Shown: positions 6,133 through 39,949, counted from the first letter of the stretch. The stretch is DNA of 64,000 nucleotides from an uncultured Spirochaetota bacterium (GCA_963835575.1 CAWIGG010000002.1:800001-864000); one strand, 5' to 3'. A program made the numbers and translations. Notes: generated by a model from the sequence alone, not told the origin.

Positions 6133-6227
6133 TCAACTCGTAAGATTGAATTACTAAGATAGTTAAATAAAGTTTTTAGATGAGTCTGAGAGTACCCCTA
6201 ATATAAGCCTGGAAAAGGAGGTTTTGA

Positions 6228-7211
6228 GTGGAGCCTGTCAGATTGGGAATAATCGGATGCGGTATTGCCGCCCATGAACTGCATTGGCCGGCGCTGGAAA
6301 AGCTTCAGGATAAATTCAGGATAGTCATGGTATGCAATCATACCGAAGAGAAGGCCAGGGATTTCGCAGAGATGGCAGGCGGCGTTCCTTATACTCTGGA
6401 TTACAGGGAACTGCTGAAAAACAAGGAAATCGAAGCCGTTGACATTGCGCTGCCGATCCATCTCAATTATGAAGCGGTAAAAAACGCGATCCGCTCTAAA
6501 AAGCATGTGATAGTGGAAAAACCTCTGGCCGCCAATCTGGATGAAGCGAAAAAAATGGCGGCATATGAAAAAAGATACCCCCGTGTTCTGATGGTCGCGG
6601 AAAATTACCGCTACAGCCCGCTTTATAAAAGGGTAAAAGCGCTTATAAAGGAAGGCGCGATCGGCGAGCTGTACGGCGCGTTCTGGGATGCCTTCAGGCG
6701 CATGGACCTCAATGATAAATACGCGAAAACGCTCTGGAGGATAAACCATCAGTACGAGGGCGGTTTTGTTACAGACGCCGGTATTCATAATATCGCGGTG
6801 CTCAGAAGCCTCTGCGGCGAATTCTCTTCCGGCATCGCCGCCATCGAGTGCATCAATCCGGCGATAGGGAGAATGGATTCGATGAGCTTTCTCTTCGCGA
6901 CGACCCATATGGTAAAAGGGGTTTTTAATATGTACTACAGCGTGAACGGGTACAGGAAAGACAGTCTGCTCCTGCTGGGTACGGAAGGGAGCATGGTTGT
7001 CGGGGAAAATAAAATCATTATCAAAAAAGAGGGTGAAGCGGATAAAATAGAGGAAATCCAGAACGACGGCGGGTACCTGGAGGAATTTGAGGATTTTTAT
7101 CTCTCAATCCGCAAAGGTAAAAAAACAGAAAGTACTTTCCAGGAAGCTTATATTGACCTGTCGGTTATGATCGGCGCCATTCAATCGGCGGAAGGAAATT
7201 CAAAAAGTTAA
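6228..7211 (+). CDS. Gfo/Idh/MocA family oxidoreductase
   Basis: GIIGCGIA Rossmann motif, HVIVEKP, GG...DAGIH; AAGGAGG RBS before GTG. Confidence 0.92.
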   Translation: MEPVRLGIIGCGIAAHELHWPALEKLQDKFRIVMVCNHTEEKARDFAEMAGGVPYTLDYRELLKNKEIEAVDIALPIHLNYEAVKNAIRSKKHVIVEKPLAANLDEAKKMAAYEKRYPRVLMVAENYRYSPLYKRVKALIKEGAIGELYGAFWDAFRRMDLNDKYAKTLWRINHQYEGGFVTDAGIHNIAVLRSLCGEFSSGIAAIECINPAIGRMDSMSFLFATTHMVKGVFNMYYSVNGYRKDSLLLLGTEGSMVVGENKIIIKKEGEADKIEEIQNDGGYLEEFEDFYLSIRKGKKTESTFQEAYIDLSVMIGAIQSAEGNSKS

Positions 7212-7232
7212 GTATGAATAACTCTAAGGTTT

Positions 7233-8975
7233 ATGAATAAAAGAATACTGTTTACTATTCATTTATGTTTTATCATGAATATCTTTACCGCGTCTTTTTC
7301 ATTATTCAATTATAACGGCGAAGAAGCCATGATTTATTCCGATTCTGAAATGCGGCCTGTTGAACTGGAAGATGTCAACCGGCTGATTAAACGGCAAAAA
7401 GATCAATTAAACGATTTTTTCAATAAAAGGCTTTCACAAAAGCCGGCGGTCTATTTTTATTCGAGCGTCAATTCCTTTGAGAAAAATCATTCATTAGACC
7501 GGCATTTCGGCGGCCTGTATCAGAATGGAAAGATCACTCTCCAGCCTTTTACTGTATTAAAGAAGAATGGAGTTCTCTGGAGTATGCTCTCCCATGAATA
7601 CACGCACTTTTATGCGGACAGCTTTTATACCAATCTGCCTTTTTTTATCCGGGAGGGATTGGCCTCTTACCTGGCGGGGAATAAAGTACGGGAGGCTGAA
7701 CCTCTTCTGTACGAAAGCATACAAAATCCTTCGAATTTTACAAACGCTTTGGACTTCGAGTATTATTTATACTCATCCCGGAATTATATTCAGTATTTAC
7801 TGACGCAGATGAAGAAAAAGGAATTCCTGGGATTTCTAGAAAAGGCCTCTCCGGCGGACATTAAAAGCAGGTATCTTGATTACTACTACGCGGATTGCGA
7901 TACCGTCAGGGTATGGATCAATCCGAGGAGCGAAAAAAGGTTCGTTATAACATTTAACGGAAACTGCAGGGTCCTTGAAGATAACGGTCTTACGAATATT
8001 TATGATAACAGTATAGATATTGAACATATCAATAATAAGCTTTATCTGAACAATAACGAATCCGGTAATGTGTCGCTTTATTTTAAGGACGGCTTTTCTG
8101 TTGATAACGGAAGGGAGAAATCAAGGGATTACAGGGGGAATTTAAAGATCATTCTCAGTAATCAGAATATTTATTTAATCAACCTGGTCCCTGTCGAGGA
8201 GTATCTTTACAGCGTCGTGAAAAGCGAAATGCCTTCCGCCAGCCTGGAAGCTTTGAAAACGCAGGCGGTCCTTTCTAGGAGCCTTGTGAATTACAAAAAG
8301 AGGCTGAACAGGAATGAATTGTACGATGTCCTGACTTTGACCAGCGACCAGTCATACCAGGGCCGGGGATGGGAAACAGCCCTTTCCCGCAGGGCCGTCC
8401 GGGAAACGGATAAGGAAGCCCTTTTTTACCATAATAGCATGGTTTATCCCTACTACTCGTCAACCTGCGCCGGGCATACGGCGCTTTCCGCCGATGTCTG
8501 GAATAAAAGCCTGCCTTATATCAAAAGCGTCGAGTGCGGCCTGTCGAACAAAATCCTCTGCTCCCTGTCGCCGCATTTTAAGGATTGGGAAAGGGAGATC
8601 ACAAGGGATGAGCTTTCTGAAATAATGAATTTTACGGTTAATAAATTTGAAATTGAACAGGCTGATCCCTTCGGGAGGGTGAAATATATCAAGGTGAACG
8701 AACGTTCTTACCTTTTCGATAACCTGAAAAGCCTGACGGCCAGGAAAAAGGGCTGGGCTTTTTTAAAGAGCAATCTTTTTACCATACGGAGATCGAGCGA
8801 TGGGCTTGTCTATCATATCAGGGGCAAAGGCCTCGGCCATGGCGTGGGTCTCTGCCAGTATGGGGCCATCGAGCTGTCGAAGGTGAAGAACTATAAGGAG
8901 ATTTTGAAGTTTTACTTCAATGAAGTGGAAGTGAGAAGGGTCCATCCGGAGGATGATTTGTACTTCCAGTACTAA
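7233..8975 (+). CDS. SpoIID/LytB domain protein with N-terminal HExxH (zincin-like) module
   Basis: EEYLYSVVKSEM, EALKTQAVLSRS, YSSTCAGHT, GLGHGVGLCQYGA; N-terminal SHEYTH...REGLA. Confidence 0.85.
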   Translation: MNKRILFTIHLCFIMNIFTASFSLFNYNGEEAMIYSDSEMRPVELEDVNRLIKRQKDQLNDFFNKRLSQKPAVYFYSSVNSFEKNHSLDRHFGGLYQNGKITLQPFTVLKKNGVLWSMLSHEYTHFYADSFYTNLPFFIREGLASYLAGNKVREAEPLLYESIQNPSNFTNALDFEYYLYSSRNYIQYLLTQMKKKEFLGFLEKASPADIKSRYLDYYYADCDTVRVWINPRSEKRFVITFNGNCRVLEDNGLTNIYDNSIDIEHINNKLYLNNNESGNVSLYFKDGFSVDNGREKSRDYRGNLKIILSNQNIYLINLVPVEEYLYSVVKSEMPSASLEALKTQAVLSRSLVNYKKRLNRNELYDVLTLTSDQSYQGRGWETALSRRAVRETDKEALFYHNSMVYPYYSSTCAGHTALSADVWNKSLPYIKSVECGLSNKILCSLSPHFKDWEREITRDELSEIMNFTVNKFEIEQADPFGRVKYIKVNERSYLFDNLKSLTARKKGWAFLKSNLFTIRRSSDGLVYHIRGKGLGHGVGLCQYGAIELSKVKNYKEILKFYFNEVEVRRVHPEDDLYFQY

Positions 8976-9024
8976 GGTGCTGCCTCCGGCGGTAGTGTCA
9001 ATGTCTTTTATTAACTTTATATTG

Positions 9025-9402
9025 GATTTTTGTTACGACTGGCAGTCGAGGGATTTGCGTACTTTTTTTCTTTTCGAAAAGAAAAAAAGTACGCGCGAAA
9101 AAAATAAAACAGGTCGAGGCCATTTTCATACGAAGCTGTCGGATTGGTTGGAGGTGTGTCATCCGGCTTTTAAAAAACGATTCCTTAATTTAATAGCCGC
9201 CTTATTACGCTGTCCTTGCCCAGCACCACTTTGAGGACGGGCAATCAAAGTGGTGCTGGGCGTGGCTTTATGCGGCGGTTTTGACATCCTTGTCAAAAAC
9301 ATGTACTTCTCTTCTATTATTATATTAGCGAATGACACGACTATATATCGAGATATTTTGTGTGCTGATTATGGTTTGGAGGAAAATGGCCTCGGGAACG
9401 GA
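9025..9402. repeat. Large palindromic/structured element, copy A (inverted relative to copy B)
   Basis: Core 9191-9298 is 107/108 identical to the reverse complement of 19723-19830; several nested hairpins. Confidence 0.9.
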
Positions 9403-9576
9403 CTATTTTTTTAAAATCTTTTTGATTTTTATTCGTTTCATTGAGGATTAAATATACTTTTTAAAACATAGTATAACAGGCATTCTGTTGCCATATAAAG
9501 TTGTACAGAACGGTAGCGTCCATTCCGTAAATTGAGAGGTTAATGTAATAAGCGACTTTTTTCTTATTACAACCAT

Positions 9577-9610
9577 ATTATAAAACATTGCGAGGGACAC
9601 AGAATGTCCC
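9577..9610 (-). promoter_or_regulatory. Putative operator GGGACA-N5-TGTCCC with TATAAT 11 bp downstream on the minus strand
   Basis: Palindrome 9594-9610; ATTATA at 9577-9582; same geometry as 19195-19228. Confidence 0.5.
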
Positions 9611-9629
9611 GGTGTGAAAAATTTAATTT

Positions 9630-10450
9630 TTGTAAATCCCCACAAATGTGGGTAATACGATGACGGGCTTCGAACATCGGCAATTCCTCCGGTTCATCCC
9701 CATGCGTATGGGGAATACGAAAGTCCGGTGCTGCAATCGTAGGTAATTTCCGGTTCATCCCCATGCGTATGGGGAATACGAGCTTGTTGCCTTCAGCATA
9801 GAGTTTGCTGCCGGTTCATCCCCATGCGTATGGGGAATACTAACATAAACATCAATATGATTTGTCGTCGAACGGTTCATCCCCATGCGTATGGGGAATA
9901 CCACCGGACTTTCTTATGTTTTCGGGATTTTAGCGGTTCATCCCCATGCGTATGGGGAATACCACCGGACTTTCTTATGTTTTCGGGATTTTAGCGGTTC
10001 ATCCCCATGCGTATGGGGAATACTTGTTGCTTTCCGCCAGAACGAGTTCCATCGCCGGTTCATCCCCATGCGTATGGGGAATACTATTCCAACTATGGTG
10101 TCGAATGCATACGCTGCGGTTCATCCCCATGCGTATGGGGAATACAACCGGGCAGCATAAATTTGTTTGGAGAAATTCGGTTCATCCCCATGCGTATGGG
10201 GAATACTCCAGGAACCCCGGGAACTCTTTTCCATCTAACGGTTCATCCCCATGCGTATGGGGAATACGGTTGACGGAAGGGCTTTCAATGCTTTGCTTGC
10301 GGTTCATCCCCATGCGTATGGGGAATACAGCTGGTGCAAGTTCTTCCAATAGAATGATTACGGTTCATCCCCATGCGTATGGGGAATACAAATATTGCGA
10401 GATATAAATTGAAGCATATTACGGTTCATCCCCATGCGTATGGGGAATAC
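9630..10450 (-). CRISPR. Type I-E CRISPR array: 13 identical 29-bp repeats (GTATTCCCCATACGCATGGGGATGAACCG on minus strand) plus one degenerate trailer repeat; 13 spacers (12 x 32 bp, 1 x 31 bp)
   Basis: Perfect repeats start at 9690, 9751, 9812, 9873, 9934, 9995, 10056, 10117, 10178, 10239, 10300, 10361, 10422 (61-bp period); degenerate repeat 9630-9658; CCCCAT/ATGGGG stem; directly downstream of cas2. Confidence 0.98.
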
Positions 10451-10478
10451 TGTATAGTTTGCTTTATTTAACAAAAAA

Positions 10479-10757
10479 CTATTTATCTACAGGTTTACTC
10501 AACAATGTAATGCCGTCAAAATCAACCGCCGTTCTTGAAGGATCGCCATTCACCAAAATCTTGAAAGACTGCTCGGCATTTGTGGAATACAGCATAATCG
10601 CGTTCAACTTCCAATCCTCCACGATTTTTCTCCAGAGCTTTTCCCTGATCCTCGCTCCGATATCAGCCACAAACACACCTGATTTAAGCTCCAATGCTAA
10701 GCGCGACATCTCGCCTTTCTGAGACGGCTTCGAATTCTCCATCATAATCACGACCAT
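10479..10757 (-). CDS. cas2: Type I-E Cas2
   Basis: 92 aa; MVVIMME, ELKSGVFV, ARIREKLW, EQSF, VDFDGITL; between cas1 and the array. Confidence 0.95.
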   Translation of the reverse strand: MVVIMMENSKPSQKGEMSRLALELKSGVFVADIGARIREKLWRKIVEDWKLNAIMLYSTNAEQSFKILVNGDPSRTAVDFDGITLLSKPVDK

Positions 10758-11577
10758 ATATCAATTCCTTCAGGTCGGGAATAATTCGCTGCATGATCCT
10801 GTTTTTCCTGAACGCGTCCCGGCACCGATACCGGACTTCCCTTTCCAGATGCTCAGGGTTATCCTTGACTGTCTGAAAAGCTATAGGAACAGTGACATCC
10901 GTCTTATAAAGATCGGCAATGTCATAAACAAAAGATAACTGCTTGCCGGTATGAACAAAACCGATGGCAGGGGACATGCCGCACGCCAGAACCGCCGCAT
11001 GAGTTATCCCGTAAAGACAGGAATTCGCTGAAGATAGGGCCCTGTTCAACGGGTCGCCGTAATCCCAGTGCTCCTGATTGTAATTCCTGCCTTTCCATTC
11101 AATTCCGTATTCCTCAGACAGCAAGTTGTAGCTTTTACGCACGCGGGCGCCTTCCATTCCCCTGAGCTGTTCGATGCTTTCGCTTCCTGTCAATTCATTC
11201 CCTCCGAAGCGTTTCCTGTACATTTCACGTACTATTTTCTCACGCGCCGCTTTGTCCGCCCATAGTTCCGCTTGCTTAAGCAGATTTCTTGAAGAATAAG
11301 TTCCCGGGCATCCGTATGAATAAAGCCTGACCCCCATCTCGCCTGTCCAGGCCACCAGGCATCGGCTTTCCGACAGGCATTTTACGGCCTCGTGAGTTAT
11401 GGAAGTCCCCGGCCCGAGCATCAAAACGCAGAGGGTTTCGACCGGAATAGGTATCACCTTGTCAAGATAATGAAACCCTATGGATTTTTGATATTGGTCG
11501 ATCAAGCCCTTTTCAAAATACAGATAACTCCATTCGTCCTCAAACTTCGGCAATTCCTGCAAATCCCGATTTTTCAT
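10684..11577 (-). CDS. cas1: Type I-E Cas1 (likely start MKNRDL at 11577)
   Basis: LMLGPGTSITHEA, QLRGMEGARV, NRALSSANSCLYG, GFVHTG, SFVYDIADLYK; GGAGG RBS before 11577. Confidence 0.97.
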   Translation of the reverse strand: MKNRDLQELPKFEDEWSYLYFEKGLIDQYQKSIGFHYLDKVIPIPVETLCVLMLGPGTSITHEAVKCLSESRCLVAWTGEMGVRLYSYGCPGTYSSRNLLKQAELWADKAAREKIVREMYRKRFGGNELTGSESIEQLRGMEGARVRKSYNLLSEEYGIEWKGRNYNQEHWDYGDPLNRALSSANSCLYGITHAAVLACGMSPAIGFVHTGKQLSFVYDIADLYKTDVTVPIAFQTVKDNPEHLEREVRYRCRDAFRKNRIMQRIIPDLKELIYGRDYDGEFEAVSERRDVALSIGA

Positions 11578-11709
11578 AAACTGCCTCCTTCCTTGGGAAA
11601 TTTCCCCCTCCCAATAAAGAAAGCTGACTATATGATTATCGGTTTGCGCCACTACAGAATATTCGCCTAATAGTAAAGAAAATATTCTGATAAAACAATT
11701 TATCTATCT

Positions 11710-12435
11710 TTATATTTTACGAACCATCAACATTCCAGAGCCGAAAGAACGCGAGTGGCCGATACCTTCAAACAAAACCTGCTTAAATCTTTCAGGGTCT
11801 TTAACAATTAGAATACCAGAGAGTTCAACACTATTAAACCGGATTTCATTTCCTCCTTTTTTACGCAATAAGTTTTGCCGATGTGCGGAAACTTCAATCT
11901 TTCTGTTTTCGCCTTCATTAACCGCAATCTGAAACCCTGATGCTTCTCCCTTTTTGACCATCCATTCTATTACCGCTTCTTCCATCCTTCGTTTGATTTC
12001 TTTGCGGTCAGTAATACCTTCTTTCTGAGCCCTAAATTTTGCATCCATTTGCACATCATGCTTAGAGGAATTCTCTTTTCCCTCAATTTTACGCGCAACT
12101 ATGGGATTTACTCTTATATTAAAAACCAACTTCATTCCTGATTTAAGTTTTGGATTATACTCCTTGGTTTCAACCCTCAAAAGACCGTTAACCGGAACCG
12201 GTTTTTTCTTCGATAAGACATAAAAAATAGGCATACCGCGTCTCGAATCGACAAATGGCATTTGCTCTTTTTCGAATTCCTGCCGGTAAAGAAATTCACG
12301 TCCGGAGTCGGGTTGATCGGGGAAAAGTTTCCAGATCAATTGATGTATGGCATAAATATCATTATTAAGCACTTTTATCAGATTCATATTAGCCTGAACC
12401 CCGCTCTCAATTCTAACCCTTGAGAAATACATCAT
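11710..12435 (-). CDS. cas6e: Cas6e (Cse3/CasE)
   Basis: YAIHQLIW, FNIRVNP, C-terminal GIGHSRSFGSGML glycine-rich loop. Confidence 0.95.
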   Translation of the reverse strand: MMYFSRVRIESGVQANMNLIKVLNNDIYAIHQLIWKLFPDQPDSGREFLYRQEFEKEQMPFVDSRRGMPIFYVLSKKKPVPVNGLLRVETKEYNPKLKSGMKLVFNIRVNPIVARKIEGKENSSKHDVQMDAKFRAQKEGITDRKEIKRRMEEAVIEWMVKKGEASGFQIAVNEGENRKIEVSAHRQNLLRKKGGNEIRFNSVELSGILIVKDPERFKQVLFEGIGHSRSFGSGMLMVRKI

Positions 12436-13175
12436 GATTCACCTCCCGCCGTCATAGAGTGTTCTTTTCGGGGAGAAAACTGCCAGCGTCTGCGGTTTAG
12501 TGGTTCGTCAAAACGTTCGGTAGTCATTTGAGGCTGCATATCACCGGCTTCACCTTCCCATAAATAACGCGGATTTACAAATTCTATGTATCTTCCGGTA
12601 ATATCTTCATCTGAGTAATTTGTAACAAGCGGAGGAAATGACGCACCGTCCAGAGCGCCGCGAAATCCTGCGGATTCAATAATCTGCGGTTTGAGCGGTA
12701 CCGCCGGAGGACAGGATTTTCTCCCCAGATATATTACAAATTCCGGATAATTTAACTTTTGTTGCAGTTTTTCCAGGGAATAAGGTGCAACTTTTCTTGA
12801 ACGTAACGCAACTATGGACAGAGCGTCACAACGGTATTCCCGGCTGGTTAAAATAGTCCCTAATCGGTCTTTGCCAACCACTATTTCATCACGACGAGTC
12901 ATATAATGATATTTCCCGGTGCTATCCGGGACCTGTACCGTATGATAATCTTTAAGTAGTGTGCCGGGACTAAATACCTTTACCGAGACATCATAACCGA
13001 GAAACAGTGCTGTCAGTTTATCTGTTTCATCCCTTCTGATTCCCAGGGCTGCAGAAACCAATCCAAGAATTGCAGAACGGCTCGGATAAGATGAGCTTCT
13101 CCTGACCTCTCCGACAGCGATTTCACCCCAGGCGGCCAGAGGCCCGTAAAGTCTGAAAACAAGGAATTTCTCCAT
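12432..13175 (-). CDS. cas5e: Cas5 (CasD), type I-E
   Basis: LYGPLAAWG, PSRSAILGLVSAALGIRR, DYHTV, REY, YLGRKSCP. Confidence 0.96.
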   Translation of the reverse strand: MEKFLVFRLYGPLAAWGEIAVGEVRRSSSYPSRSAILGLVSAALGIRRDETDKLTALFLGYDVSVKVFSPGTLLKDYHTVQVPDSTGKYHYMTRRDEIVVGKDRLGTILTSREYRCDALSIVALRSRKVAPYSLEKLQQKLNYPEFVIYLGRKSCPPAVPLKPQIIESAGFRGALDGASFPPLVTNYSDEDITGRYIEFVNPRYLWEGEAGDMQPQMTTERFDEPLNRRRWQFSPRKEHSMTAGGES

Positions 13176-13178
13176 AAG

Positions 13179-14240
13179 TTACTCCTGAATAAATTTAATC
13201 AAATCAGCCGCGGAGCCTTTACCTTCAAAAGCGTTTAAAGTCTTTCTTTCTACTCCTTTAATATCATAAACTTTATCCATTTTTGCATATGTTGTTTCAA
13301 GCGCACTTACAGCATCTTCTCCAATATTATCCCCCTTAATCGGCTTGAGAAACGCGACAGAAAGTGAACGTGGCTGTTCATCACCTTTTTCCAAGAGTAC
13401 ATAAGATGCCCAAGCGCGGCTGGCATAGCTGTTCTGTTTGCCCTCGGGAGCAATCTTCACGGCTGATTCCAGTAAAGCGGCAAGTGTTTTATTAGCCAGA
13501 GTTTTATCATCCCCGAGATTTTGTATCAAAAGTTCCCGGTCAATACAGATATAGCTGTAGAAAAGGGCAGATGCGAAACCGCTTTCACCGATATGCGCCG
13601 CACCCATATCGTCTTTACCATTGTTAAGATCATCCACAGCGGTAAAATAATCATCTTCAATGACAACCGGATGAACGCTTATGGGGTGTGATACCTGGCA
13701 GGCGGCTTCCACATTATAGGCCGGACTGGAAGCCAGCATACGACCAAAAAGAGCGATATCGACAGCCGTTTCAGGATGGCGTAATAGTTGCAGTTCCGTC
13801 TCATTTGGCACCCGGTTTTCTTTAATCAGTCTGTCTGCCAATTTATAAACAGCTTCTATTTCTTCCGGTGAAATGTGCGCCAATTGCTCAATTTCAAGTT
13901 CTTCGTGTTTTTCAGGCTGTTTCTTGTTCTCACCTTTGAGTTTGCCAAATACACCTGCTATCGATTGCGCCCATTCTTTCGCGCTTTTTTCTTTAATTTC
14001 CCCTTTTATCAACCTTTCATATATTTTATGCCCAAGCTCTTTGGTTCTAGTTCCAATATGTCCGCTCATAGCCGATTTAAACAAATCAGAGGTTCTCCAG
14101 GCTCTTTTGATGCTCTGAGAAGAAATCCGAAGTCGATCAACTCCGCCCATTTTCGCTGTCTTCGGCCGGCCCATGTCGTCTCGGTTCAAATTTGCTGGTG
14201 GATATGATGTCAGGGTATGAATCTGAATAAACTTACTCAT
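13179..14240 (-). CDS. cas7e: Cas7 (Cse4/CasC)
   Basis: PANLNRDDMGRPK, RISSQSIKRAWR, DIALFGRM, DYFTAVDDL, GKQNSYA. Confidence 0.97.
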   Translation of the reverse strand: MSKFIQIHTLTSYPPANLNRDDMGRPKTAKMGGVDRLRISSQSIKRAWRTSDLFKSAMSGHIGTRTKELGHKIYERLIKGEIKEKSAKEWAQSIAGVFGKLKGENKKQPEKHEELEIEQLAHISPEEIEAVYKLADRLIKENRVPNETELQLLRHPETAVDIALFGRMLASSPAYNVEAACQVSHPISVHPVVIEDDYFTAVDDLNNGKDDMGAAHIGESGFASALFYSYICIDRELLIQNLGDDKTLANKTLAALLESAVKIAPEGKQNSYASRAWASYVLLEKGDEQPRSLSVAFLKPIKGDNIGEDAVSALETTYAKMDKVYDIKGVERKTLNAFEGKGSAADLIKFIQE

Positions 14241-14270
14241 AAAAAATTCTCCTTTTAATTTTATTTTTCG

Positions 14271-14807
14271 TTATCTCGGAAGGTGTTGAAAATAATCCAG
14301 TCCCCATCGTATTAAAATCCTGTTACGCGGATTATTTTCCTCTTCACCATTTTCCCTTTCTTTGTACCAGTGAAGAATGCTGTCAGCGACAGAAACAGGG
14401 TCTGCTTTCTCACGCAAAAGGTGTATTGCCCTAATCATACGGATATATAGTTCATCCAATGTATGGCTTTTCTGGAGCTGAGCGAAACGAAGTTCACTCA
14501 ATGCCGGTTTATCTTTACCTTCTGGCGATGCTGCGCAGGATGCCGTAAAAGACTTTTCATCGATATACTTAATATGCGACACAATACCGGCCGCCGCCGC
14601 AAGTCCGAGTAAATTCCGTTCCTGAGTCCAGTATCCAGCTAGTTCATAATAGAGATAGCGGAAACCATGGCATAACAGAACATCTGCCGGGTTTTCCGAG
14701 CGTCGAAGTTCCGCCCTCCAGCCGGAATTTTCCTGAAGCTTCCCCCACCATGACTTCATTTTTTCCGGGTCTTCTTTGTTTCTGAACCCGTAATAATATT
14801 GGCTCAT
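14271..14807 (-). CDS. cse2: Cas11 (Cse2/CasB)
   Basis: RAELRR, LSELRFAQL, C-terminal W..DY; lies between cas8e and cas7. Confidence 0.92.
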   Translation of the reverse strand: MSQYYYGFRNKEDPEKMKSWWGKLQENSGWRAELRRSENPADVLLCHGFRYLYYELAGYWTQERNLLGLAAAAGIVSHIKYIDEKSFTASCAASPEGKDKPALSELRFAQLQKSHTLDELYIRMIRAIHLLREKADPVSVADSILHWYKERENGEEENNPRNRILIRWGLDYFQHLPR

Positions 14808-16375
14808 ACACCCTCCTGATTTAAGATTTGTAATGATTTCGTTTTAGGACTATTTAAAATACTGGTCAACGTTTTTGCGGCTTCGGCAACCCGCTTCATA
14901 TTCCTGGGTTCATCAGTTTCCTGCAAAGCAAACCGGTCGAAAATTCTTTCTACAGCTTTGATGATGATAGAACGCCATTCTTTTAAGATTGTAAAAGTAG
15001 GTTGGTTTCCTTCTATGCTTTTGCTTAGCTCATCGGTTATGGCATAAAAATCGGATTCTGTTTCTTCCCAGAAAGCGGAACGGATAAAAGATATATCGCC
15101 CTTTTTGTCACCGGGCCTATCAAACAAGGCTGATTTAACTTGATCTTGGAGTAATTTTGACATTTCATCGGCGGCGGTGATTATTTTTTGAACCTCTTCG
15201 ACAAATCGCTCTTTTTTATCTTCACTGATATTCAACAAGGGCATAGTCTGGTCGTACCAGCAACGGGCTTTCATATTATCCATATCATAACCAAAGCACC
15301 ATATTCTATTTTGCCCAGAATTACTTATTTTATATACCTTATGCGTAATAAAAGATTTTACAATTGCGGCTGCCTTCTCATTTTCCGATCCACCTAAAGT
15401 CAAAGAAAGCCAATCAGGATAAGAAAATCCTCCTTGTTTACCTTTGATTGCAATAAGGCTTGTACTTCCATCTTTTTCTTTCTGTTGTCTATAGGGGCTA
15501 AGAGTATGCTGCCAAATTGAAGAATAGCTTATACCATAGTTAATAGCTTTGAATTCTACCCAAACAGAACCAGTGCTTCCACAAATGCTACATGTTTTAG
15601 ATTCTATTTTTTTCAATAATCGAATACGGCGAGGCATGCCCCAATACATTTGTAATTCATTGACATCTGAAGGATTAGTTTGTATATCATTTTTACTTTC
15701 GCGAGTCAAAGCCATCCATGGAAAAATATTAAAAGGTGCGTTTTGGACTGGTTCTCCGAATTTTTCTTCTTTAGTCAAAATATTCAACCAAACCATTTTC
15801 CACAAAGAATCTTCTGAAGCCTCATTAATTATCAGTGTAGTTAAAGGACCACCACCCCTCATACCCGTTCTATGACCCTGACCACCTGATGGTGCATTAA
15901 TCTGTAAGGTGCTTAATGCCGTAGTCACACACCTATCACAAAGACATTCAACGACATCCCTTTTTACAAAATGATCTAAATTATTTTTTACAGTATTTGC
16001 CCCCGGTGAATCAATAAGAAGAGATCGTATATTTGAAACTTCTGCTTTTTCAGGAAGATTAAAATCCTGCATAAACGCCGGGCCATGCTCATTCACCAGT
16101 TCAAAAGCTTCTACGAATTTACTAAAAACCCCTCTCAATTCTTCACATGAAGGTGTTTTATCCCACCTATCTTTCCATTCCTTGTCATCTTCGGGAGCGT
16201 AAGCGGTTTGAACAAGTCCAATCATAAACTGGTAAAGCGCCCCTCGGAAATCCGGACGCGGCGCGGTAATTTCAGTAACAGGATTATCCGAAAGCCCAAT
16301 TTCCCAGGGAGCAATAACACATTCTGTTCCATCCGCACGTTTTACCGGAATCCACCGGTCTTTAATTAAATTCAT
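14804..16375 (-). CDS. cas8e: Cas8e (Cse1/CasA)
   Basis: MNLIKDRWIPV, LQINAPSGGQGHRTGMRGGGPLTT, WGMPRRIRL, CxxC, GYDMDNMKARCW. Confidence 0.95.
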   Translation of the reverse strand: MNLIKDRWIPVKRADGTECVIAPWEIGLSDNPVTEITAPRPDFRGALYQFMIGLVQTAYAPEDDKEWKDRWDKTPSCEELRGVFSKFVEAFELVNEHGPAFMQDFNLPEKAEVSNIRSLLIDSPGANTVKNNLDHFVKRDVVECLCDRCVTTALSTLQINAPSGGQGHRTGMRGGGPLTTLIINEASEDSLWKMVWLNILTKEEKFGEPVQNAPFNIFPWMALTRESKNDIQTNPSDVNELQMYWGMPRRIRLLKKIESKTCSICGSTGSVWVEFKAINYGISYSSIWQHTLSPYRQQKEKDGSTSLIAIKGKQGGFSYPDWLSLTLGGSENEKAAAIVKSFITHKVYKISNSGQNRIWCFGYDMDNMKARCWYDQTMPLLNISEDKKERFVEEVQKIITAADEMSKLLQDQVKSALFDRPGDKKGDISFIRSAFWEETESDFYAITDELSKSIEGNQPTFTILKEWRSIIIKAVERIFDRFALQETDEPRNMKRVAEAAKTLTSILNSPKTKSLQILNQEGV

Positions 16376-19117
16376 TCAAGCCTCCTCATTTAACTCCGCA
16401 CCCCACCCAAGTCGCGGATCATAATATTCCGATATCGGTTTATTACCAGAAAGTGCTTCGCTTGACCTGCAATTAACCAAAACGATTTCACTATATTTCA
16501 GTCTCGAAATTTCAGATTTTAATTTCTTTTCTAATTTTAAATAATCCGCAGACAGTTCATAATTAATTTTCTTCCAATTACACAAAGAAACAGAAAGAGT
16601 ACTCCAGTCCCAAGCATTATTTTCGACTTCCGCATAAGGAATCAGCTTGCCATTCTGGATAACAGCCAGGGCTATTTCCTGATTTTCTTCCATTAAACGG
16701 GTGCTTTTTTCTTCCTCTTCGCCCCAATCACTCAGTTTATCCGCATCCCAGCAATAACCCTTTTCAAGAATAATAGCACTCAAATCTCCCTGGGCCTCTT
16801 TTTTCCTGTCTGCACCCTCCGCCCTTGACACTTTTTCTTTCAGACCCTCCGGCAATTCCTGAGAATTATTCTCATCATAAACATTTTCAATTAAATCCCT
16901 TGCTTCCTCCGGCATCTTCCAACCCTTTTTCCCTTCCAATAATCTCTGCGTTCTCCAGAGAATCCCAACATTTTGATAAACAGATGATGTGCCTTTAAAA
17001 TCACCCGACAGCCAATTTTTATCAGCGTTATCGTTAAATACAGGACAGAACAAATAAATAACGGGAACCCCTCTTTCATCAACTGCATTGTCTTCAAGTC
17101 TGTTACCCTCTTTATCCCTGACATGCCGGCGAAGGCGCCCGGCTCTTTGAATCAATAAATCAATAGGGGCAAGGTCGGAAAACATAGCATCAAAGTCAAG
17201 ATCTAAAGACTGTTCCACAACCTGAGTTGCAATCAATATTCGGCCTTTTCGTTTATCTTTGCCGCTCATTATTCCAAAATTGTCAATAGTCGCCTTTTCA
17301 ATTCTTGCCCGATCGATCATAGCAAACCGGCTATGGAAAAGATCAATATTTTCACACTCAATACCAGACATGTTTCTTAAATCAAAATAGGCTTTTCTGG
17401 CATCCTTGACGGTATTGCGCACCCAGCAGACACATTCTTCCTTCTCGGCTTTCTTAATGATTTCAGCCAACACATCGGAATAATTGTAAGTAAATTTCAC
17501 ATCAACTTCCCTTTTCAACTTTTTACTGGTTTGGACAATATCAATCTTTAAAACATCTTTAGCTACTTGAGTTATTGAAGGAAAAGCTTTTTCACCGGAG
17601 TATTCTGTCACATCATCCTGATTCCCCAAACCTCTTCGGAACGCCTTTAAAATATCCCTTTTTTTCTTCAGTGGAATCGTCGCGGAAAGTAGTATTGCCG
17701 TACCTCCACTCCGTGCATGCGCTTCTAATAAAGTTTCTAATAAATGACCCATATAAGGGTCATACGCATGAACCTCATCTACAACAAGTACTTTTCTTTG
17801 CATTCCCAATAACCGAAGGGATTGATGTCTCACCGGTAAAATACCAATCAGAGCCTGATCGATAGTGCCTACCCCCACATCCGCCAGCAGGGCTTTTTTC
17901 CGATTGTCCGTAAACCATTCATTACAATAAGCACTTGCTGTTTCCTCAACATTTCCATAAGATTGATCCTCTTTTTGCAACAGCTTTATGAACACATCAT
18001 ATAAATGGCTTGATCCATGAGATAATATAATCGAAGGTTTTGAATTATCTGTATAAAGTTTGTAATAAGCTTGTTTCATTCTATTAAACATAGCGTTTGC
18101 CGTCGCCATTGTGGGCAACCCGATATAAAGCCCGTCCGCTTCCCCGGCAGCCATAATACGGGCGGCCAGTACCATAGCGGCTTCTGTTTTCCCCGCCCCG
18201 GTAACATCTTCTATTATGAATAACTTAGGTCCCGTACTTAAAGGTGTGATTTCAGCCAAAGACTGAAGAGGTGTCGGACGATGAATAAAAGGGAACATAG
18301 ATGAAATATCGCTGTATTTACTTGCTTTCCCCACGTTCCACCGGATTTTATCTAAAGCTATGCTCGCCTGTGATAAAGCCCTATTATTCCAATAATCTTT
18401 TAACTCTACTATATCAGATAGGTAAGGAAAATATTCTTGATTAGAACCAACCCAGTCCGCCAGAATACCAAGCCCGGCTATCTGCCAAGATAGTTCTTTT
18501 AATATTTTTTTAGGAATAATGTAATTTTCAGGAAACTCAGGAATTATACCCAAAAGATCAAAACAGGAATTTATAAAACTTTGGGCAGCTTTAACATCAT
18601 TATCATCAAAAAAAGAAGATACATATAATGGTGTATTTCCTCCTCTGCTAGACTCAAGCGGCGGAATTCCATGGTGACCAAATGCCGCTTTAATAATATA
18701 GTCAGCAATCTGCATCAAGATATTGTTTTTTGAATCGAATAAATATTTTATAGAATTTTCATTTCTATTCGGATCACCGCGCCAAAGAAGAAAACCAAGA
18801 GTATCATGCCTCTCTTCATAAATTTTAATTTTATGTAAAGGAAACAGAATACAATATAAACCAGGCACTAAGGATTGAAAGGTTTTTGAAAATTTTCCAA
18901 GGTCGTGAATGATCATAATCAATGTAATAACATAACGAACCGTTTTTCCAGGAAAGGATAGTTTTTGAGCTATATCCTTGCATCTCCGGGATTCCGGATC
19001 AAGCAACAGCCAAGTTACAGCGGCTACATCTAAGCAGTGGTATGGCAAAAGATGGTAAGAAAACTCTTTATCTCCTTTTTTGGTTGATTTTCCCCAGTAG
19101 AAATAATAATCTTTCAT
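16376..19117 (-). CDS. cas3: Cas3 HD nuclease / SF2 helicase
   Basis: YHCLDVA, HDLGK, GHHG, ADWVGS; TGAGKTE, DEVH, LSAT, ATQVVEQSLDLDFD, QRAGRL; all motifs appear intact. Confidence 0.97.
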   Translation of the reverse strand: MKDYYFYWGKSTKKGDKEFSYHLLPYHCLDVAAVTWLLLDPESRRCKDIAQKLSFPGKTVRYVITLIMIIHDLGKFSKTFQSLVPGLYCILFPLHKIKIYEERHDTLGFLLWRGDPNRNENSIKYLFDSKNNILMQIADYIIKAAFGHHGIPPLESSRGGNTPLYVSSFFDDNDVKAAQSFINSCFDLLGIIPEFPENYIIPKKILKELSWQIAGLGILADWVGSNQEYFPYLSDIVELKDYWNNRALSQASIALDKIRWNVGKASKYSDISSMFPFIHRPTPLQSLAEITPLSTGPKLFIIEDVTGAGKTEAAMVLAARIMAAGEADGLYIGLPTMATANAMFNRMKQAYYKLYTDNSKPSIILSHGSSHLYDVFIKLLQKEDQSYGNVEETASAYCNEWFTDNRKKALLADVGVGTIDQALIGILPVRHQSLRLLGMQRKVLVVDEVHAYDPYMGHLLETLLEAHARSGGTAILLSATIPLKKKRDILKAFRRGLGNQDDVTEYSGEKAFPSITQVAKDVLKIDIVQTSKKLKREVDVKFTYNYSDVLAEIIKKAEKEECVCWVRNTVKDARKAYFDLRNMSGIECENIDLFHSRFAMIDRARIEKATIDNFGIMSGKDKRKGRILIATQVVEQSLDLDFDAMFSDLAPIDLLIQRAGRLRRHVRDKEGNRLEDNAVDERGVPVIYLFCPVFNDNADKNWLSGDFKGTSSVYQNVGILWRTQRLLEGKKGWKMPEEARDLIENVYDENNSQELPEGLKEKVSRAEGADRKKEAQGDLSAIILEKGYCWDADKLSDWGEEEEKSTRLMEENQEIALAVIQNGKLIPYAEVENNAWDWSTLSVSLCNWKKINYELSADYLKLEKKLKSEISRLKYSEIVLVNCRSSEALSGNKPISEYYDPRLGWGAELNEEA

Positions 19118-19194
19118 TTTCTTACATCCAATGACAATTTACTAAAACCCATAAAACTTACTTATGCCCACTTAATCCTTCCTATCACCCTTCC

Positions 19195-19228
19195 ATTATA
19201 CCACATCCCCCGCGACACAGGACGTCCC
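19195..19228 (-). promoter_or_regulatory. Putative cas3 promoter: GGGACG-N5-TGTCGC operator with extended -10 TGTGGTATAAT
   Basis: Minus strand GGGACGTCCTGTGTCGC-N11-TATAAT, about 78 bp upstream of the cas3 ATG. Confidence 0.55.
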
Positions 19229-19317
19229 TGTACAAGATAAATAAAAACCGCGCAAATCCGCCTCATCCGTGCTGATCCGTGTGAAAAATCGGATTTTATA
19301 ATAAAGATTCTTTTATT

Positions 19318-19452
19318 GTCGAGCATATATTCGATATCCTGCTTGACAGTGCTCTTGTTCACCTCGAATTTTTTGCTGATTTTTGAAACAGTAATTTTTC
19401 CTGAGTCTTTGATGTGCCGATTTATGTAGGCAATGCGCTCTGAAAGGCTCAT
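19318..19452 (-). pseudogene. Truncated winged-HTH resembling the N-terminus of WYL-domain (or DeoR-type) regulators
   Basis: MSLSERIAYINRHIKDSGKITVSKISKKFEVNKSTVKQDIEYMLD (FEV..STV..DI HTH pattern); rest of the 19162..19458 ORF runs into repeat and promoter DNA. Confidence 0.6.
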
Positions 19453-19619
19453 ATCCACCCCCTTGTCATCAGTGAGCCGTCAAACCCCCGCTATTGCACA
19501 AAAAGATAACCAATTATACACCCGTCTTCATTTTAAAACCATATTTATTTGATTCTCTATATCAATAAGGCTAATTTTAATTTTTTCATTATGTTTCCCC
19601 CGTGGTTGCTTCCCGTTCC

Positions 19620-19996
19620 TCCGTTCCCGAGGCCATTTTCCATTAGCCATAATCTGCGCATTAAATATCTCAATATCAAGTCGTGCTATCCGCTTTAATA
19701 ATAGAAGAGATGAAGCACATTCTTTTGACACGGATGTCAAAACCGCCGCATAAAGCCACGCCCAGCACCACTTTGATTGCCCGTCCTCAAAGTGGTGCTG
19801 GGCAAGGACAGCGTAATAAGGCGGCTATTATAAACGGGAATCATAAATTCAATAGACGGATAGCACACATCCATATCATCAGACTTCTTAGTATGAAAAT
19901 GGCCTCGACCTGTTTTCTTTCTTTTTTGCTCCTTTTCTTTCTTTTCGAAAAGAAAGAAAAGGAGCTTCCCCCAACAGCCTGTCGGAATAAAAAATC
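19620..19996. repeat. Large palindromic/structured element, copy B
   Basis: Reverse-complement homolog of 9025-9402. Confidence 0.9.
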
Positions 19997-20071
19997 TCTT
20001 TAAATTTCATTAAAAAGAAAAGATTATCAAAAGAAAGTGACCCCCGCGGTAAGTGTTACCGCATAACACAT

Positions 20072-20108
20072 AAAAAAACCCGTAAGGTTAACTCCCTGCG
20101 GGTTTTTT
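20072..20108. terminator. Probable bidirectional intrinsic terminator
   Basis: AAAAAAACCCGTAAGG...CCCTGCGGGTTTTTT downstream of the 20130..21068 gene. Confidence 0.6.
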
Positions 20109-20129
20109 GTATTTTTGCGTGAAAAATAA

Positions 20130-21068
20130 TTATTCCAAGATTTCCTTTACATCGATGGTACCGCTCCATTGGGAATCCTTGATGATGTCTCCCCTTGCCC
20201 TGATCATCCTTCCGTTTTGTCTGAACAGGCTTTTCTTATAATCACCGATGACTTTGAGAGATATTCTGGACCGGGATTCGGGCTTGATGACCAGATAGAC
20301 TTCATTATCGCCCGTGCTGACTTCAACTTTTACATTAATAAAACCTTCATCGTCTTCGCCCTGTGTTTTGATTTCAATATCATGCGGACGGGACTTAACG
20401 TAATTTGTTATTGTAATGTAATTGGTTATGGTCAAATAAACATAATTTGTTATAGTTGCGATGTTGACCGTTGCCGGATTTCCGGCATTAATAACGCCCA
20501 GAATGGTTTTTATCTCGATTGTCCCGAACCTGCCGGTTTGCTTGTCTATTTCGCCTTTAACATCAATGATTTTTCCGTCATATTTAAAAAGCTCATTTCT
20601 CAATTTCCCGGTAACTTTCAGGTAAAGCTTTGATTCGGAATCCCAATTCTGGATGAAAAACACTTCATTACGTTTCAAAGTTGCTTCTATTTTACCCCTG
20701 TAGACTTCTCTGTTATCAATAATCACAGGTGCAGAAGAATACTGACCTGCCGCTGTGCTGATTATTTCATAGATATCAATAGTGCCCAGACTGGCGGTCT
20801 GTTTTTGAATGATGCCTTTAACTGTAATTATCTGGCCGTCATATTTGAAAAGCTCATTTCTGTATCTTCCAGTGATTTTCAATAATGCTTTTGCGGAAGA
20901 ATCCCAGTTTAATATAAAGAATACTTCATCACGCTTCAGCGTGACCTGGATTTTGCCCTTGCATACATCTTTGAGATTGGGGCTAATCATGTTCCCATTA
21001 TCGGGTTCGCCGGCAAAACCGCCTCTGAAGAAAGCTAATAAACATAAACTTAAAATAATAGTTTTCAT
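20130..21068 (-). CDS. Secreted hypothetical protein with three ~65-aa repeats
   Basis: Signal peptide; three copies of K.EV.....EV(F/Y)....S...LK.(T/I)G.....LF..(D/N)G..I...G.I.K.....GTI.....I; ITNY-rich linker. Confidence 0.75.
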   Translation of the reverse strand: MKTIILSLCLLAFFRGGFAGEPDNGNMISPNLKDVCKGKIQVTLKRDEVFFILNWDSSAKALLKITGRYRNELFKYDGQIITVKGIIQKQTASLGTIDIYEIISTAAGQYSSAPVIIDNREVYRGKIEATLKRNEVFFIQNWDSESKLYLKVTGKLRNELFKYDGKIIDVKGEIDKQTGRFGTIEIKTILGVINAGNPATVNIATITNYVYLTITNYITITNYVKSRPHDIEIKTQGEDDEGFINVKVEVSTGDNEVYLVIKPESRSRISLKVIGDYKKSLFRQNGRMIRARGDIIKDSQWSGTIDVKEILE

Positions 21069-21309
21069 TTTATTCTCCTTTGTTTTACTCTGAATATTAT
21101 TATAACAGGGTATTTATTTAATTGAAAAGCATTTTAATAAATTTTATATTTATAACAAAATTATTTCAACAATTTTTAATTCTCAGTTATGGCAACTCTT
21201 TATTTATTTTAAGTTTTATTTTAGAATATGCCGTTTACATTATCTAAAGCAGTTCAAAAAACCTGAAACATTTTGGAACTGACAATAATTTTAAAGCTGG
21301 AGAGTATCA

Positions 21310-21720
21310 ATGCCGGTTAATTTATTTGAGCGTTTAAAAGTGGTCAATGACGCGTTTTTTCAAATGCCTGAATTGCCTTGTATTAAATGGAGCAGGGGAG
21401 TCATAAAGAAAAAATACCGTAAACTCACATTCGGGACTTATGATATCAAAAGAGATCAGATCAGGATCCACCCGATATTGGAAAATGAAGCCGTTCCCGC
21501 TATTGTATTGAATTTTGTCATTTATCATGAGCTTCTGCATTATCAGGACAGGGACGCCTTAAAGGAAAGGTACAAAACGCCTTTCTTCCATAAAAGATCG
21601 TCGCACAAAGTGCATAATCCGCATTTTCACCGGCGTGAAAAAGCTTTTCCTGAAAAAAAGGAAGCGACAAAAATCATGCGCGAATTGACCCTGGGCACCT
21701 ATTGGAAAAATAAATATTAG
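21310..21720 (+). CDS. SprT/YgjP-like small zinc metalloprotease
   Basis: FGTY...IRIHPIL, VIYHELLH, downstream H...F...E. Confidence 0.75.
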   Translation: MPVNLFERLKVVNDAFFQMPELPCIKWSRGVIKKKYRKLTFGTYDIKRDQIRIHPILENEAVPAIVLNFVIYHELLHYQDRDALKERYKTPFFHKRSSHKVHNPHFHRREKAFPEKKEATKIMRELTLGTYWKNKY

Positions 21721-21865
21721 CCTTGCAGGCAAAGTGCCGATGTAGTTTATGGGGCTGAAGATGATTTTAAGGCCTTTCCGGGTATTGATATTCATAAACC
21801 TTGAATAATTTTTGAAAGCCAGTTAAAATATAAATTAAAATTTAGAAATGAGGGAAGGAGAATAT

Positions 21866-22894
21866 ATGAACTTTTTTTCTGTAATAAAAGACGCTTTTGT
21901 CAATGATCTGGCGATTGATCTGGGCACTGCGAATACCCTCATTTATATAAAGGGACAGGGCATTGTTCTTTCCGAGCCTTCCGTTGTCGCGATCCAGACC
22001 GGCACGGGGAAAGTAATGGCGGTGGGGAAAGAAGCGAAGAATATGCTGGGCAAAACCCCCGGGGATATTGTGGCCATCCGCCCGATGAGAGAGGGGGTGA
22101 TCGCAGATTTTGAAGTTGTCGGAAAAATGATGAAATATTTTATCTCAAAAAGCCAGACGCGGCGGAAACTGGTCCATCCCCGCGTCGTTATCGGCGTGCC
22201 TTCCGGAGTGACGGAAGTGGAAAGAAGGGCCGTAAGGGAAGCGGCCGAACAGGCCGGCGCGACAAAAATCTATCTGATAGAAGCGCCTAAAGCCGCGGCC
22301 CTCGGAGCGAACATTCCCATTGATGAACCGGCCGGACATATGGTAATCGATATCGGCGGAGGCACGACCGAGGTCGCTGTTCTGTCGCTGGGGGGAATCG
22401 TGATCAGCAACTCCATCCGCGTCGGCGGCGATAAATTCGACGAAGCAATCATGTCTCATCTGAAAAAATACCATAACCTGATCGTCGGCGAGAAAACGGC
22501 CGAGGAGCTCAAGATAAAGATCGGCAGCGCTTATCCTTTGAAAACCGTGGAAACAATGGAAATAAAAGGAAGGGACGCTATCAGCGGCCTGCCGAGAATA
22601 CTTAAAATCGACAGCGTTAAGGTCAGGGAAGCTCTTCAGGAAACCGTCAATAAAGTGCTGGACGCCGTCAGGCAGACGCTTGACCAGACGCCGCCGGAAC
22701 TTTCCTCGGACATAATCGAGAGGGGTGTTGTCATGGCGGGAGGCGGGTCTCTTTTGCGCGGTTTGCCTAAATTTATTTCAAAGAATACGGGAGTGCCCGT
22801 GTTTTTATCTGAAAATCCTCTTACCTGTGATGTACTGGGTGCGGGTAAATATCTTGAGAATATTAAAAAATATGAAAATCAGTATTATGGATAG
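21866..22894 (+). CDS. mreB: Rod shape-determining actin MreB
   Basis: [46 protein letters not shown]; start taken at the ATG after GAAGGAG. Confidence 0.97.
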
Positions 22895-22913
22895 GGGCGA
22901 TTGGTAATATCCA

Positions 22914-23793
22914 ATGCAAAACCTTTATTTTTATAAGAACAAACCTTTCGTTTTTTCTGATCCTTCTCCTTTCCATTTCGGTTTGTCTGATGTTTTTCCA
23001 GGTCCGGTTTAATTTTTTAAACCTCAGGCCGGTATTCTTTTTTATCACATACCCTGTTCAATATTCCCTTAAAGCCATAGGGGATTTTTTCTCAAATTCT
23101 TTTGTCGGCATTTCCAAAATTCAGGAATTGGAAGATGAATTAAAAACAACGAGGGAGAGCCTGGACAAGTATAAGAGGACTCTTCTGCCTTTTTCTCAGC
23201 TGCAGAAAGACAATGAGGAATATAAAAAGATTCTGGGTGTAAAGTCCAAAATTGATTATAATACAAAATATGCCCGCATTGTATTCAGGGACCCCAGTTT
23301 GACCGGGGATTATTTTATTGTTGATAAAGGCGCGTTTGACGGACTTAAAGAAAATATGCCGGTGATTTCATATAATGAGGACGGGAATATTTATTTAATA
23401 GGTAAAACATCGGAAGTCAATCTTTCCGCGGCCAAGGTCAAGCTGATCACGGCGGCGGATTCTTTCATCGGCGTGGCGCTCAAATCCAGCGGATATGTCG
23501 GCGTTCTCAGGGGCAACGGTTCCTGGAACCAGAACTGCATCGCGGAGTATATTCCGATTGAGGCCGACACTTTCGCGGGAGAGGAAGTTGTCACATCCGG
23601 CGAAAGCGATATATTTCCCCCCGGTTTATTGATAGGACATGTAGTGGGCATCGGTAAAGCGCCTGTCGAGGAATTTTTTAAAAAGCTCTATGTAAAGCCT
23701 GAGTTTAAATACTCAAAAACCAGAAATGTTTTTATCATGGAATGGAAGCCCAATGTGGATGTCGGAAATCTGATAGAACATACGAGCGAGTAG
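22914..23793 (+). CDS. mreC: MreC (apparent frameshift in T6 tract near the 5' end; in-frame ORF 22990..23793)
   Basis: Coiled coil, IVDKG..DG...NMPV, VVTSG..IFPPGLLIG; lies between mreB and mreD. Confidence 0.88.
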
Positions 23794-36812: not shown

Positions 36813-37147
36813 AAATAATTAACAGGAAGACGGAAAGCGATGCCCTGAATAAGTGAAGCGCATCGAAGGGGCGGGAAGGATTAATGGGAGAAGAATATGG
36901 GATTTGGCATATATAAGCGTAATTGCGGGGAGATGGTTATCTTCCCTGCCGGAAGTTACAGCCCGAAGCAATCTGTCGGGCCGCACTGGAGTAGCTTACA
37001 AACTGATGAGGGAGGATTTGGCGGATTAGCGCGGATATTTCATGAAGGTATTAACGGGAATCAGTGTGATTAATCGGATATAATAAAAAAAAGGAAATTT
37101 AAAGTTAGGAAAGATAATCTTAATTTTATGTAAGATAGGAGAGATAT

Positions 37148-38668: not shown

Positions 38669-38756
38669 ATTATAAAACCTTTCGAAAGTGCAAAAAAAAC
38701 TGTGCTGATATGAAGTGAATCCATACTTTGTATTGTTAGTGTTTAATACAAAAAGC

Positions 38757-38900
38757 GTCATTGAGAGCGGATTACCCGCTCCTTCGCCGCTGATTACAGC
38801 GCGAAGCAATCTGTCTGTACATTAAGCAATATCTATAAGCCGACAGATTGCTTCGGGCGAAGGCTTTCGGCAAAGCAGATGTCTGTCTCCTCGCAATGAC
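38757..38900. repeat. GTCATTGCGAG...CTCGCAATGAC palindromic element, copy 1
   Basis: Terminal IR GTCATTGAGAG/CTCGCAATGAC and inner CGAAGCAATCTGTC/GACAGATTGCTTCG; direct-repeat partner at 39950-40178. Confidence 0.8.
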
Positions 38901-39082
38901 GGCTTTTATAATTTATCGCATTTTTCAGTAAAACCGCAAAGCATATATGTCAAAAGCCTTTCGTTTATGCAAAACCGCCGTCATTCCGAGCATCTTGATA
39001 TCGGTATTTTAATTGAGGAGATACTTCAGGGGCAAATGTATGAGTGAGAGTCAGAATAGGAAATTGAACGCGATGATGATTT

Positions 39083-39702: not shown

Positions 39703-39949
39703 AGCGCCCTCTTTATTATAATTATATCCTGAAACGATTGATTAGTCAAAAGGATAATTATCTTATTTATACCCGGTTTTTATGGGTCATCCGTTTCCTG
39801 CATACCAGTTGAAGGGTCAGGGTAAACTCCTAATACGGAATCTTACGGATTATCGCGGAATTATTTTGTATAAAATCAAATACATAATCCTTTGTTACTT
39901 CAGCGGGGCCGGAAGTTTTACTGAAAAATGTGATAAATTCTAAAAGGTT

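Follow-up and report, generated by a model that had tools for sequence, protein, structure and literature searches.

The type I-E CRISPR-Cas locus of an uncultured Spirochaetota bacterium (home genome G000, 4.39-Mb) lies between two inverted copies of a structured element, which raises the question of what these copies are and how they relate to the genes between them. The preliminary description of this DNA offered two answers, a composite-transposon-like unit or a structured element linked to the locus. Both are considered here for the window, meaning the whole stretch of 64,000 nucleotides that was analysed (G000 contig C2, positions 800001-864000), and for the copies of the element found elsewhere.

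The bracketed locus and its edges

The two copies, A and B (Table 1), are 85% identical at full length over 370 aligned columns, and a repeat search of the window recovered their inverted homology as three sets of arms: 9179-9374/19647-19842 (86%), 9063-9174/19848-19959 (78%) and 9381-9402/19620-19641 (100%). Positions 9191-9298 and 19723-19830 agree at exactly 107 of 108 sites, in a block largely made up of a 44-bp hairpin that is an optional insertion within a loop, and the initial view of the two edges as inverted homologues was thereby borne out. This near-identical run of 108 compares with a median of 30 and ranks second-longest of 276 pairs; the block is likely a gene-conversion tract. 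Copy A folds as RNA with z-scores of -6.9 and -7.3 on the two strands and copy B folds as DNA with a z-score of -9.6. The basal helix of copy A is near-invariant within G000 and covaries among relatives, and the second GGA loop is interrupted by the insertion in both copies alike. The arm motif of the 44-bp palindrome falls within element copies at 11 of its 12 genome sites, as does the main 3' hairpin motif at all of its 13.

The bracket encloses a complete cas operon and its array, the strand of the latter presumably following the usual type I-E repeat orientation. With just 28 bp (10451-10478) between the stop codon of cas2 and the first repeat, the leader must either be very short or extend into cas2. 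A tandem duplication of one spacer lies at window 9873-9994. Neither a second copy of the array nor a full-length spacer target elsewhere was found in G000, and a domain scan of the ORFs inside the bracket matched no transposase family, in agreement with the preliminary description. Type I-E cas7 occurs in 3 of the 43 genomes of the class. Other repeats in the window are an internal repeat within the 312-aa ORF (20512-20881), an IS66 copy (4336-5793), REP-like palindromes (36918-40174) and a gene region duplicated with a spacing of about 1.8 kb (42921-46350).

Table 1. Features of the bracketed locus (positions in the window) and of related loci (contig named)
Feature	Position	Strand	Remarks
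SpoIID-domain gene	7233..8975	+	outside the bracket, 3' side of copy A
Copy A, TwoAYGGAY-like element	9025..9402	- (GGA-loop strand)	5' end (9402) faces the CRISPR array trailer
Copy A 3' extension hairpins	9036..9094 (9036-9048 + 9057-9094)	-	just past the spoIID stop
Copy A core	9115..9394	-	13-bp basal helix, 9115-9127 with 9382-9394
Optional 44-bp palindrome inside second GGA loop, copy A	9218..9261	none
Copy A first GGA-loop hairpin	9279..9298	-	loop AAGGAT; from sequence and covarying stem
Degenerate CRISPR repeat	near 9629-9657		from sequence
CRISPR array	9690..10450	-	13 exact 29-nt repeats, 12 spacers (11 distinct)
Complete type I-E cas operon	10479..19117	-	cas3, cse1, cse2, cas7, cas5, cas6e, cas1, cas2
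98-aa ORF inside the bracket	19162..19458	-	weak N-terminal HTH matches
Copy B	19620..19996	+ (GGA-loop strand)	5' end (19620) faces cas3
Copy B basal helix	19628-19640 with 19895-19907
Copy B ACGGAT-loop hairpin	19723-19742
Copy B inserted palindrome	19760-19803
Copy B 3' hairpin	19928-19965
312-aa ORF without Pfam match	20130..21068	-	outside the bracket, 3' side of copy B, GC 0.39
Group II intron-bearing loci L035, L046, L055	G000 C2:94.4k, C4:454.8k, C5:88.4k
Type I RM + PDC-M04	G000 C5		bracket
Type I RM + HerA	G006 C11		bracket
SIR2/Dsr1-like	G006 C6		bracket
HNH	G009 C5		bracket
Y1 transposase with own REPs	G006 C3		bracket

Build and distribution of the element

The element has a core of about 245 bp closed by a 13-bp helix, with optional parts consisting of hairpins at one end and the 44-bp palindrome in one loop. 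Across its stems, 84.6% of cells pair compared with 61.1% in shuffles (reached in 0 of 500) and 35-44% in slid controls, in an alignment of related sequences that had been fitted to the model; the proposal of a covarying structured element is upheld by this pairing well above shuffles across relatives.

BLAST and nhmmer searches of the whole genome placed about 35 copies in G000 (33 used in flank tests, 35 in the orientation test), and a first covariance model, R1, gave 42 matches there, split halves counted in. R1 found the element in 3 of the 43 genomes of the class. A second model built from these three genomes (R2; G000, G006 and G009) gave 36 matches in G006 and 44 in G009, both of which belong to a sister genus, and none in the congeners G001, G002 and G004; across 151 genomes of the phylum it matched only G000, plus one partial match in the more distant G132. 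The BLASTN comparison suggested at the outset thus returned many copies at home and none in 40 relatives searched with the core, and the copies of G006 and G009 were detected by covariance models only. Searches of plasmids and phages for the element, and of IMG/VR for the paired-end pattern, gave no match, and exact-pattern scans yielded 3 GTDB and 4 metagenome matches that are chance-like and confined to the pattern.

Copies are mosaic, and the longer ones carry an inserted IS1182, IS1380 or group II intron, each with its own ends. Longer copies were rejected as autonomous forms, the internal ORFs belonging to these insertions. One IS1182 type has 4 of 6 copies at the second GGA loop (L040, L043, L055 and L059), and another occupies the 3' hairpin module in all three genomes. 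IS1182 was also rejected as a parent of the element, 20 of the 23 copies of one type lying outside elements. The group II intron (2,026-bp) is present in four near-identical copies. Three of them share a single insertion point within the first GGA hairpin, and the same short upstream word precedes the remaining one. A coding origin was rejected as unsupported, a protein search with a spurious ORF over copy B being empty, and HEARO/omegaRNA, a group I or II intron remnant and attC were rejected in the absence of Rfam matches or motifs.

A divergent TwoAYGGAY-like fold

On the opposite strand the core forms two GGA-loop hairpins and a basal stem, with covarying helices. The Rfam search proposed in the preliminary description gave only sub-threshold matches to the TwoAYGGAY family: RF01731 matched 7 of 20 copies on the GGA strand, always at full length (1-168), at 21.5-37.2 bits against a gathering threshold of 43 bits, and one more copy at 23.7 bits. 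It did not match window copy A, and a whole-genome RF01731 search returned no hits. Strict AYGGAY occurs in 23 of 106 GGA-anchored loops, the remainder being mostly NNGGAY. In one stem, read on the GGA strand, tandem G-A/A-G pairs (18 sequences) alternate with G-C/C-G pairs (12), with 2 mixed, a count that covers the 32 sequences of 50 matching the pattern and leaves 18 outside it; tandem GA in one TwoAYGGAY stem is noted in PMC4333381. These tandem GA pairs show the GGA strand to be the folded one. R2 matched 10 of 11 G132 loci at 29.7-42 bits, in addition to a site on contig C26 that scores 45.2 on RF01731, and the G132 copies mostly lie above the RF01731 cut-off. No R2 match was obtained on 10 viral-contig loci, 6 of them RF01731-positive. 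The element was accordingly filed as a putative divergent branch of TwoAYGGAY-like elements and not as a curated member.

Likeness to the TwoAYGGAY RNA motif (RF01731; Weinberg et al. 2010, PMC2864571; Li et al., bioRxiv 10.64898/2026.09.22.753630) extends to the two GGA-loop hairpins, the long basal stem, the 3' extension hairpins, the many copies, the patchy distribution, the divergent (5'-ends-inward) pairs and the short repeat words at some 5' ends, which were found here in 5 of 34 copies compared with 1.5 expected. GGAAC-type words repeat just outside the AYGGAY-5' end at window 19610-19627 and in four other copies, and recall the 5' repeat arrays of Pseudomonas. The present copies differ in that they are AT-rich and score below the threshold, and R2 provides no link between this subfamily and copies of the Pseudomonas type (0 of 10 loci). 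According to bioRxiv 10.64898/2026.09.22.753630, Pseudomonas TwoAYGGAY is multi-copy, with 68.4% divergent doublets 249 bp apart, and function, as well as a link between mobility and regulation, is left open there. That median gap of 249 bp was obtained with 2-kb grouping and contrasts with the 1-11 kb of genes between partners here.

Other repeat families resemble the element in part. REPINs and RAYT (Bertels & Rainey 2011, PMC3116915) share its non-autonomous, intergenic and fold-back character, and G000 has a Y1 gene, but the element is larger, branched and covarying, the Y1 genes carry short palindromes of their own and their distribution does not track it.

Integron attC sites and CALIN likewise combine conserved structure with variable sequence, lie beside accessory genes and are targets of IS and group II introns, whereas the copies studied here have no integrase beside them, cargo in mixed orientation, and dispersed, often inverted sites with no evident attC core boxes. 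MITE-bounded composite transposons (TIME, IMU) also consist of two inverted short elements and cargo with no transposase inside; the bracket differs from them in its diverged ends (85%), its lack of TSDs and the absence of a fixed terminal sequence across subfamilies.

Polarity of the flanking DNA

The 5' end of the element preferentially faces low-GC accessory DNA, often carrying defence genes, in three related genomes. Measured in G000 at offsets of 30 and 200 nt, the GC of the 1-kb flank is 0.366 on the 5' side and 0.451 on the 3' side, with the 5' flank the poorer of the two in 28 of 33 copies (p=7.5e-7); the GC3 of the nearest CDS behaves likewise (0.424 vs 0.548; 24 of 33 copies, p=0.0014). 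The 5' flank is also GC-poorer in G006 (27 of 35 copies, 1 dropped for a short flank, p=0.0009) and G009 (28 of 37 copies, 7 dropped for short flanks, p=0.004), although all three genomes belong to one family, so these results are not independent. Polarity is absent from the more distant G132 (13 of 24 copies, 3 dropped, p=0.13). Canonical members on viral contigs, a thin sample, are lower in GC on the 5' side at 5 of 6 usable loci (p=0.22), and at a single Pseudomonas-type locus, compared across 12 contigs, the 3' side is uniform and the 5' side more patchy.

In a manual tally, one of the two nearest genes on the 5' side was an RM or CRISPR gene at 9 of the 33 G000 copies, and a more generous tally that adds TA-like, Fic, FRG, STAND and kinase genes raised this to 18 of 33; no such gene was the scanned 3' neighbour of any of the 33. 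The 5' neighbours comprise type I, IIG, III and ISP RM, TA-like, Fic, FRG, SIR2/Dsr1-like, HNH and AAA proteins, and the 3' neighbours are mostly housekeeping genes or an IS1182 seated in the 3' hairpin. The bracketing would have been coincidental, on the preliminary description, had dozens of copies been scattered without enrichment at defence islands and had relatives with the cas locus lacked the flanks. Only half of this holds: the copies do number dozens, yet they are enriched at accessory and defence boundaries. One element in G000 (L060:4350-7973; C5:408.8k) adjoins a gene for a 1,207-aa type IIG RM protein that has a Y1_Tnp domain in its interior, and G022 contains an open frame of 1,183 aa that matches Y1.

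Inward pairing around complete systems

Among 115 copies in the three genomes, neighbours within 12 kb are inward in 15 cases, tandem in 11 and outward in none (p=3e-5), and within 26 kb the corresponding numbers are 18, 15 and 6 (p=0.011). Copies A and B form one of the 15 inward pairs. G000 alone has 2 inward pairs within 12 kb compared with 0.77 expected, no significant excess (p=0.17). Inward pairing does not count as evidence separate from polarity, since 5' ends facing islands would by themselves give inward pairs.

Bracketing is thus non-random across three genomes and is not specific to CRISPR: several other systems are enclosed (Table 1), the element-rich G006 and G009 are without type I-E cas7, and the congener G004 has type I-E cas7 without the element. 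The suggestion of a structured element linked to the locus therefore holds for its structured, non-coding nature and for a bracket that belongs to a wider non-random pattern, but not for a particular tie to CRISPR. The inward pair on G006 C3 (L139:870-2640; 120.4-122.2k) surrounds a 148-aa RAYT-like Y1 gene with its own palindromes. A longer bracket of 24-kb in G000 (L133-L134; C4:308.8-333.2k) contains a kinase, an SspH-like ATPase, a DpdJ-like helicase and a type III RM along with several genes without PADLOC matches, and is a candidate defence island. The 25-kb bracket at C4 988-1013 kb contains ordinary genes, 0 of 15 matching PADLOC.

In general, partners resemble each other no more closely than copies taken at random (p=0.25-0.65), which means that they do not as a rule convert one another. 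Neither A nor B is the other's best match, their partner ranks being 6 and 2 of 22. Neither an empty nor an alternative allele was observed; over window 6200-23000, the reads from 4 sequencing runs included no long stretches of this organism.

Mobility and candidate enzymes

Target site duplications in G000 were counted at 8, 4, 2 and 1 of 26 copies for k=5-8 compared with 11.1, 4.3, 1.9 and 0.6 expected, with outer element ends that were only roughly placed; the preliminary description, which had found no convincing duplication, is matched by this lack of signal. In G132, the core lies within a unit of 194 bp that ends in 16-bp terminal repeats, and 10 of 17 rows (or 9 of 16 distinct sites, against a null of 6.6%) are flanked by exact 5-bp duplications, which indicates that a TwoAYGGAY-type fold can move as DNA. 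RF01731-positive cores in the 194-bp unit are found at G132 loci L303-L337 (for example L311, L314, L323 and L325); shorter versions of the unit are without a core, and in L325 and L334 the core has the opposite orientation with respect to the outer arms.

Apart from IS transposases, no gene for mobilisation is found repeatedly next to copies, and no transposase was found beside unpaired G132 ends in the 16 of 37 ORFs scanned. Y1 genes are present in 7 of the 43 genomes without tracking the element, are absent from G009 (57%-complete), and the stand-alone Y1 gene of G000 has no element nearby.

Proposed mechanism and alternatives

The preferred reading, to which we give a probability of roughly 45%, is that the element is a folded, non-autonomous DNA that spreads in trans and that inverted pairs likely delimit slots, the cargo of which is exchanged through repeat-anchored recombination. 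After spreading in trans, resident copies would serve as partners for incoming DNA in which an element carries genes on its 5' side, and recombination between them would produce either tandem element-cargo-element units or the replacement of cargo between two inward copies. The content of such a slot would be type I-E CRISPR-Cas here and RM or other defence genes elsewhere, and the conversion event that probably left the 108-bp block might in addition have flipped the cas block. Polarity, pairing, the mosaic copies and the movement in G132 are observed; we infer both the exchange of cargo and the enzyme responsible for it.

The copies may instead be passive markers, that is, MITE-like repeats whose insertion or survival favours one orientation at core/accessory boundaries; the bracket would then be a by-product with no part in moving the CRISPR locus. 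This is unlikely but accords with several results: the copies in G132 resemble MITEs, having 5-bp TSDs but lacking polarity, partners are unrelated, G004 has type I-E cas7 without the element, and the excess of pairs in G000 is not significant. This explanation has to contend with the missing TSD signal in G000, and the 15:0 ratio of inward to outward pairs together with a GC3 bias at coding level demands a strong orientation rule. A preferred orientation might be given, for example, by 3' hairpins acting as terminators for core genes, but only about half of the copies have a 3' neighbour gene that terminates at the element, so that a terminator role leaves the bias unexplained. A composite transposon, with two inverted ends recognised by a transposase in trans and a CRISPR-Cas block moving as a unit, would account for inward pairs around complete systems at 1.4-10.9 kb, for the 13-bp inverted repeat that closes each core and for the transposition of related G132 elements with TSDs. 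It is nevertheless quite improbable, because A and B are only 85% alike and neither is the best match of the other, the 13-bp repeat covaries between subfamilies as a helix and unlike a fixed enzyme site, G000 has neither a second array copy nor a TSD signal, and many copies are single or in tandem. For a young form of the composite-transposon-like unit first suggested, the dissimilar partners, the absent TSD signal and the want of a recurrent dedicated transposase make the case poor.

Very improbable, too, is a regulatory RNA, in which a transcript of the GGA strand would bind CsrA and tune adjacent foreign genes, copy A being transcribed by read-through from the array. In its favour, tandem G-A pairs alternate with G-C pairs on the GGA strand (18, 12 and 2 mixed), csrA is present in G000, and CsrA binding of TwoAYGGAY has already been proposed in PMC4333381 and in the discussion of bioRxiv 10.64898/2026.09.22.753630. 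However, csrA is also present in G002 and G004, both without the element, strict AYGGAY is confined to just 23 of 106 loops and the second loop is broken in both window copies. G-T and A-C pairs are near-symmetric (55 vs 37), the fold z-scores favour neither strand clearly, promoters occur at chance level (3 vs 2.3 expected), and a regulatory role would leave copy number and polarity unexplained.

Significance for defence-gene turnover

The motif itself is known, and what is added here is the quantified 5'-side polarity and the inward pairing around whole defence systems. No description of TwoAYGGAY flanking defence genes was found in the literature searched; the words 'cargo', 'restriction' and 'TSD' do not occur in the main text of bioRxiv 10.64898/2026.09.22.753630, and the host lineage lies outside those that it covers. 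TwoAYGGAY has been without a demonstrated function since 2010, and the divergent branch described here has a measurable polarity, which in combination with bracketing gives a concrete and testable role in the turnover of defence genes. As a practical marker, the element points to its 5'-side genes, many of them without a Pfam match, as candidates for new defence systems.

A broader and rather doubtful proposition is that TwoAYGGAY-type elements in general are polar recombination sites of single-strand-folded DNA, not primarily regulatory RNAs, and constitute an integrase-free cassette system that loads and swaps defence systems. If this were true, complete systems as large as the CRISPR-Cas locus of 10 kb would be exchanged at many chromosomal positions.
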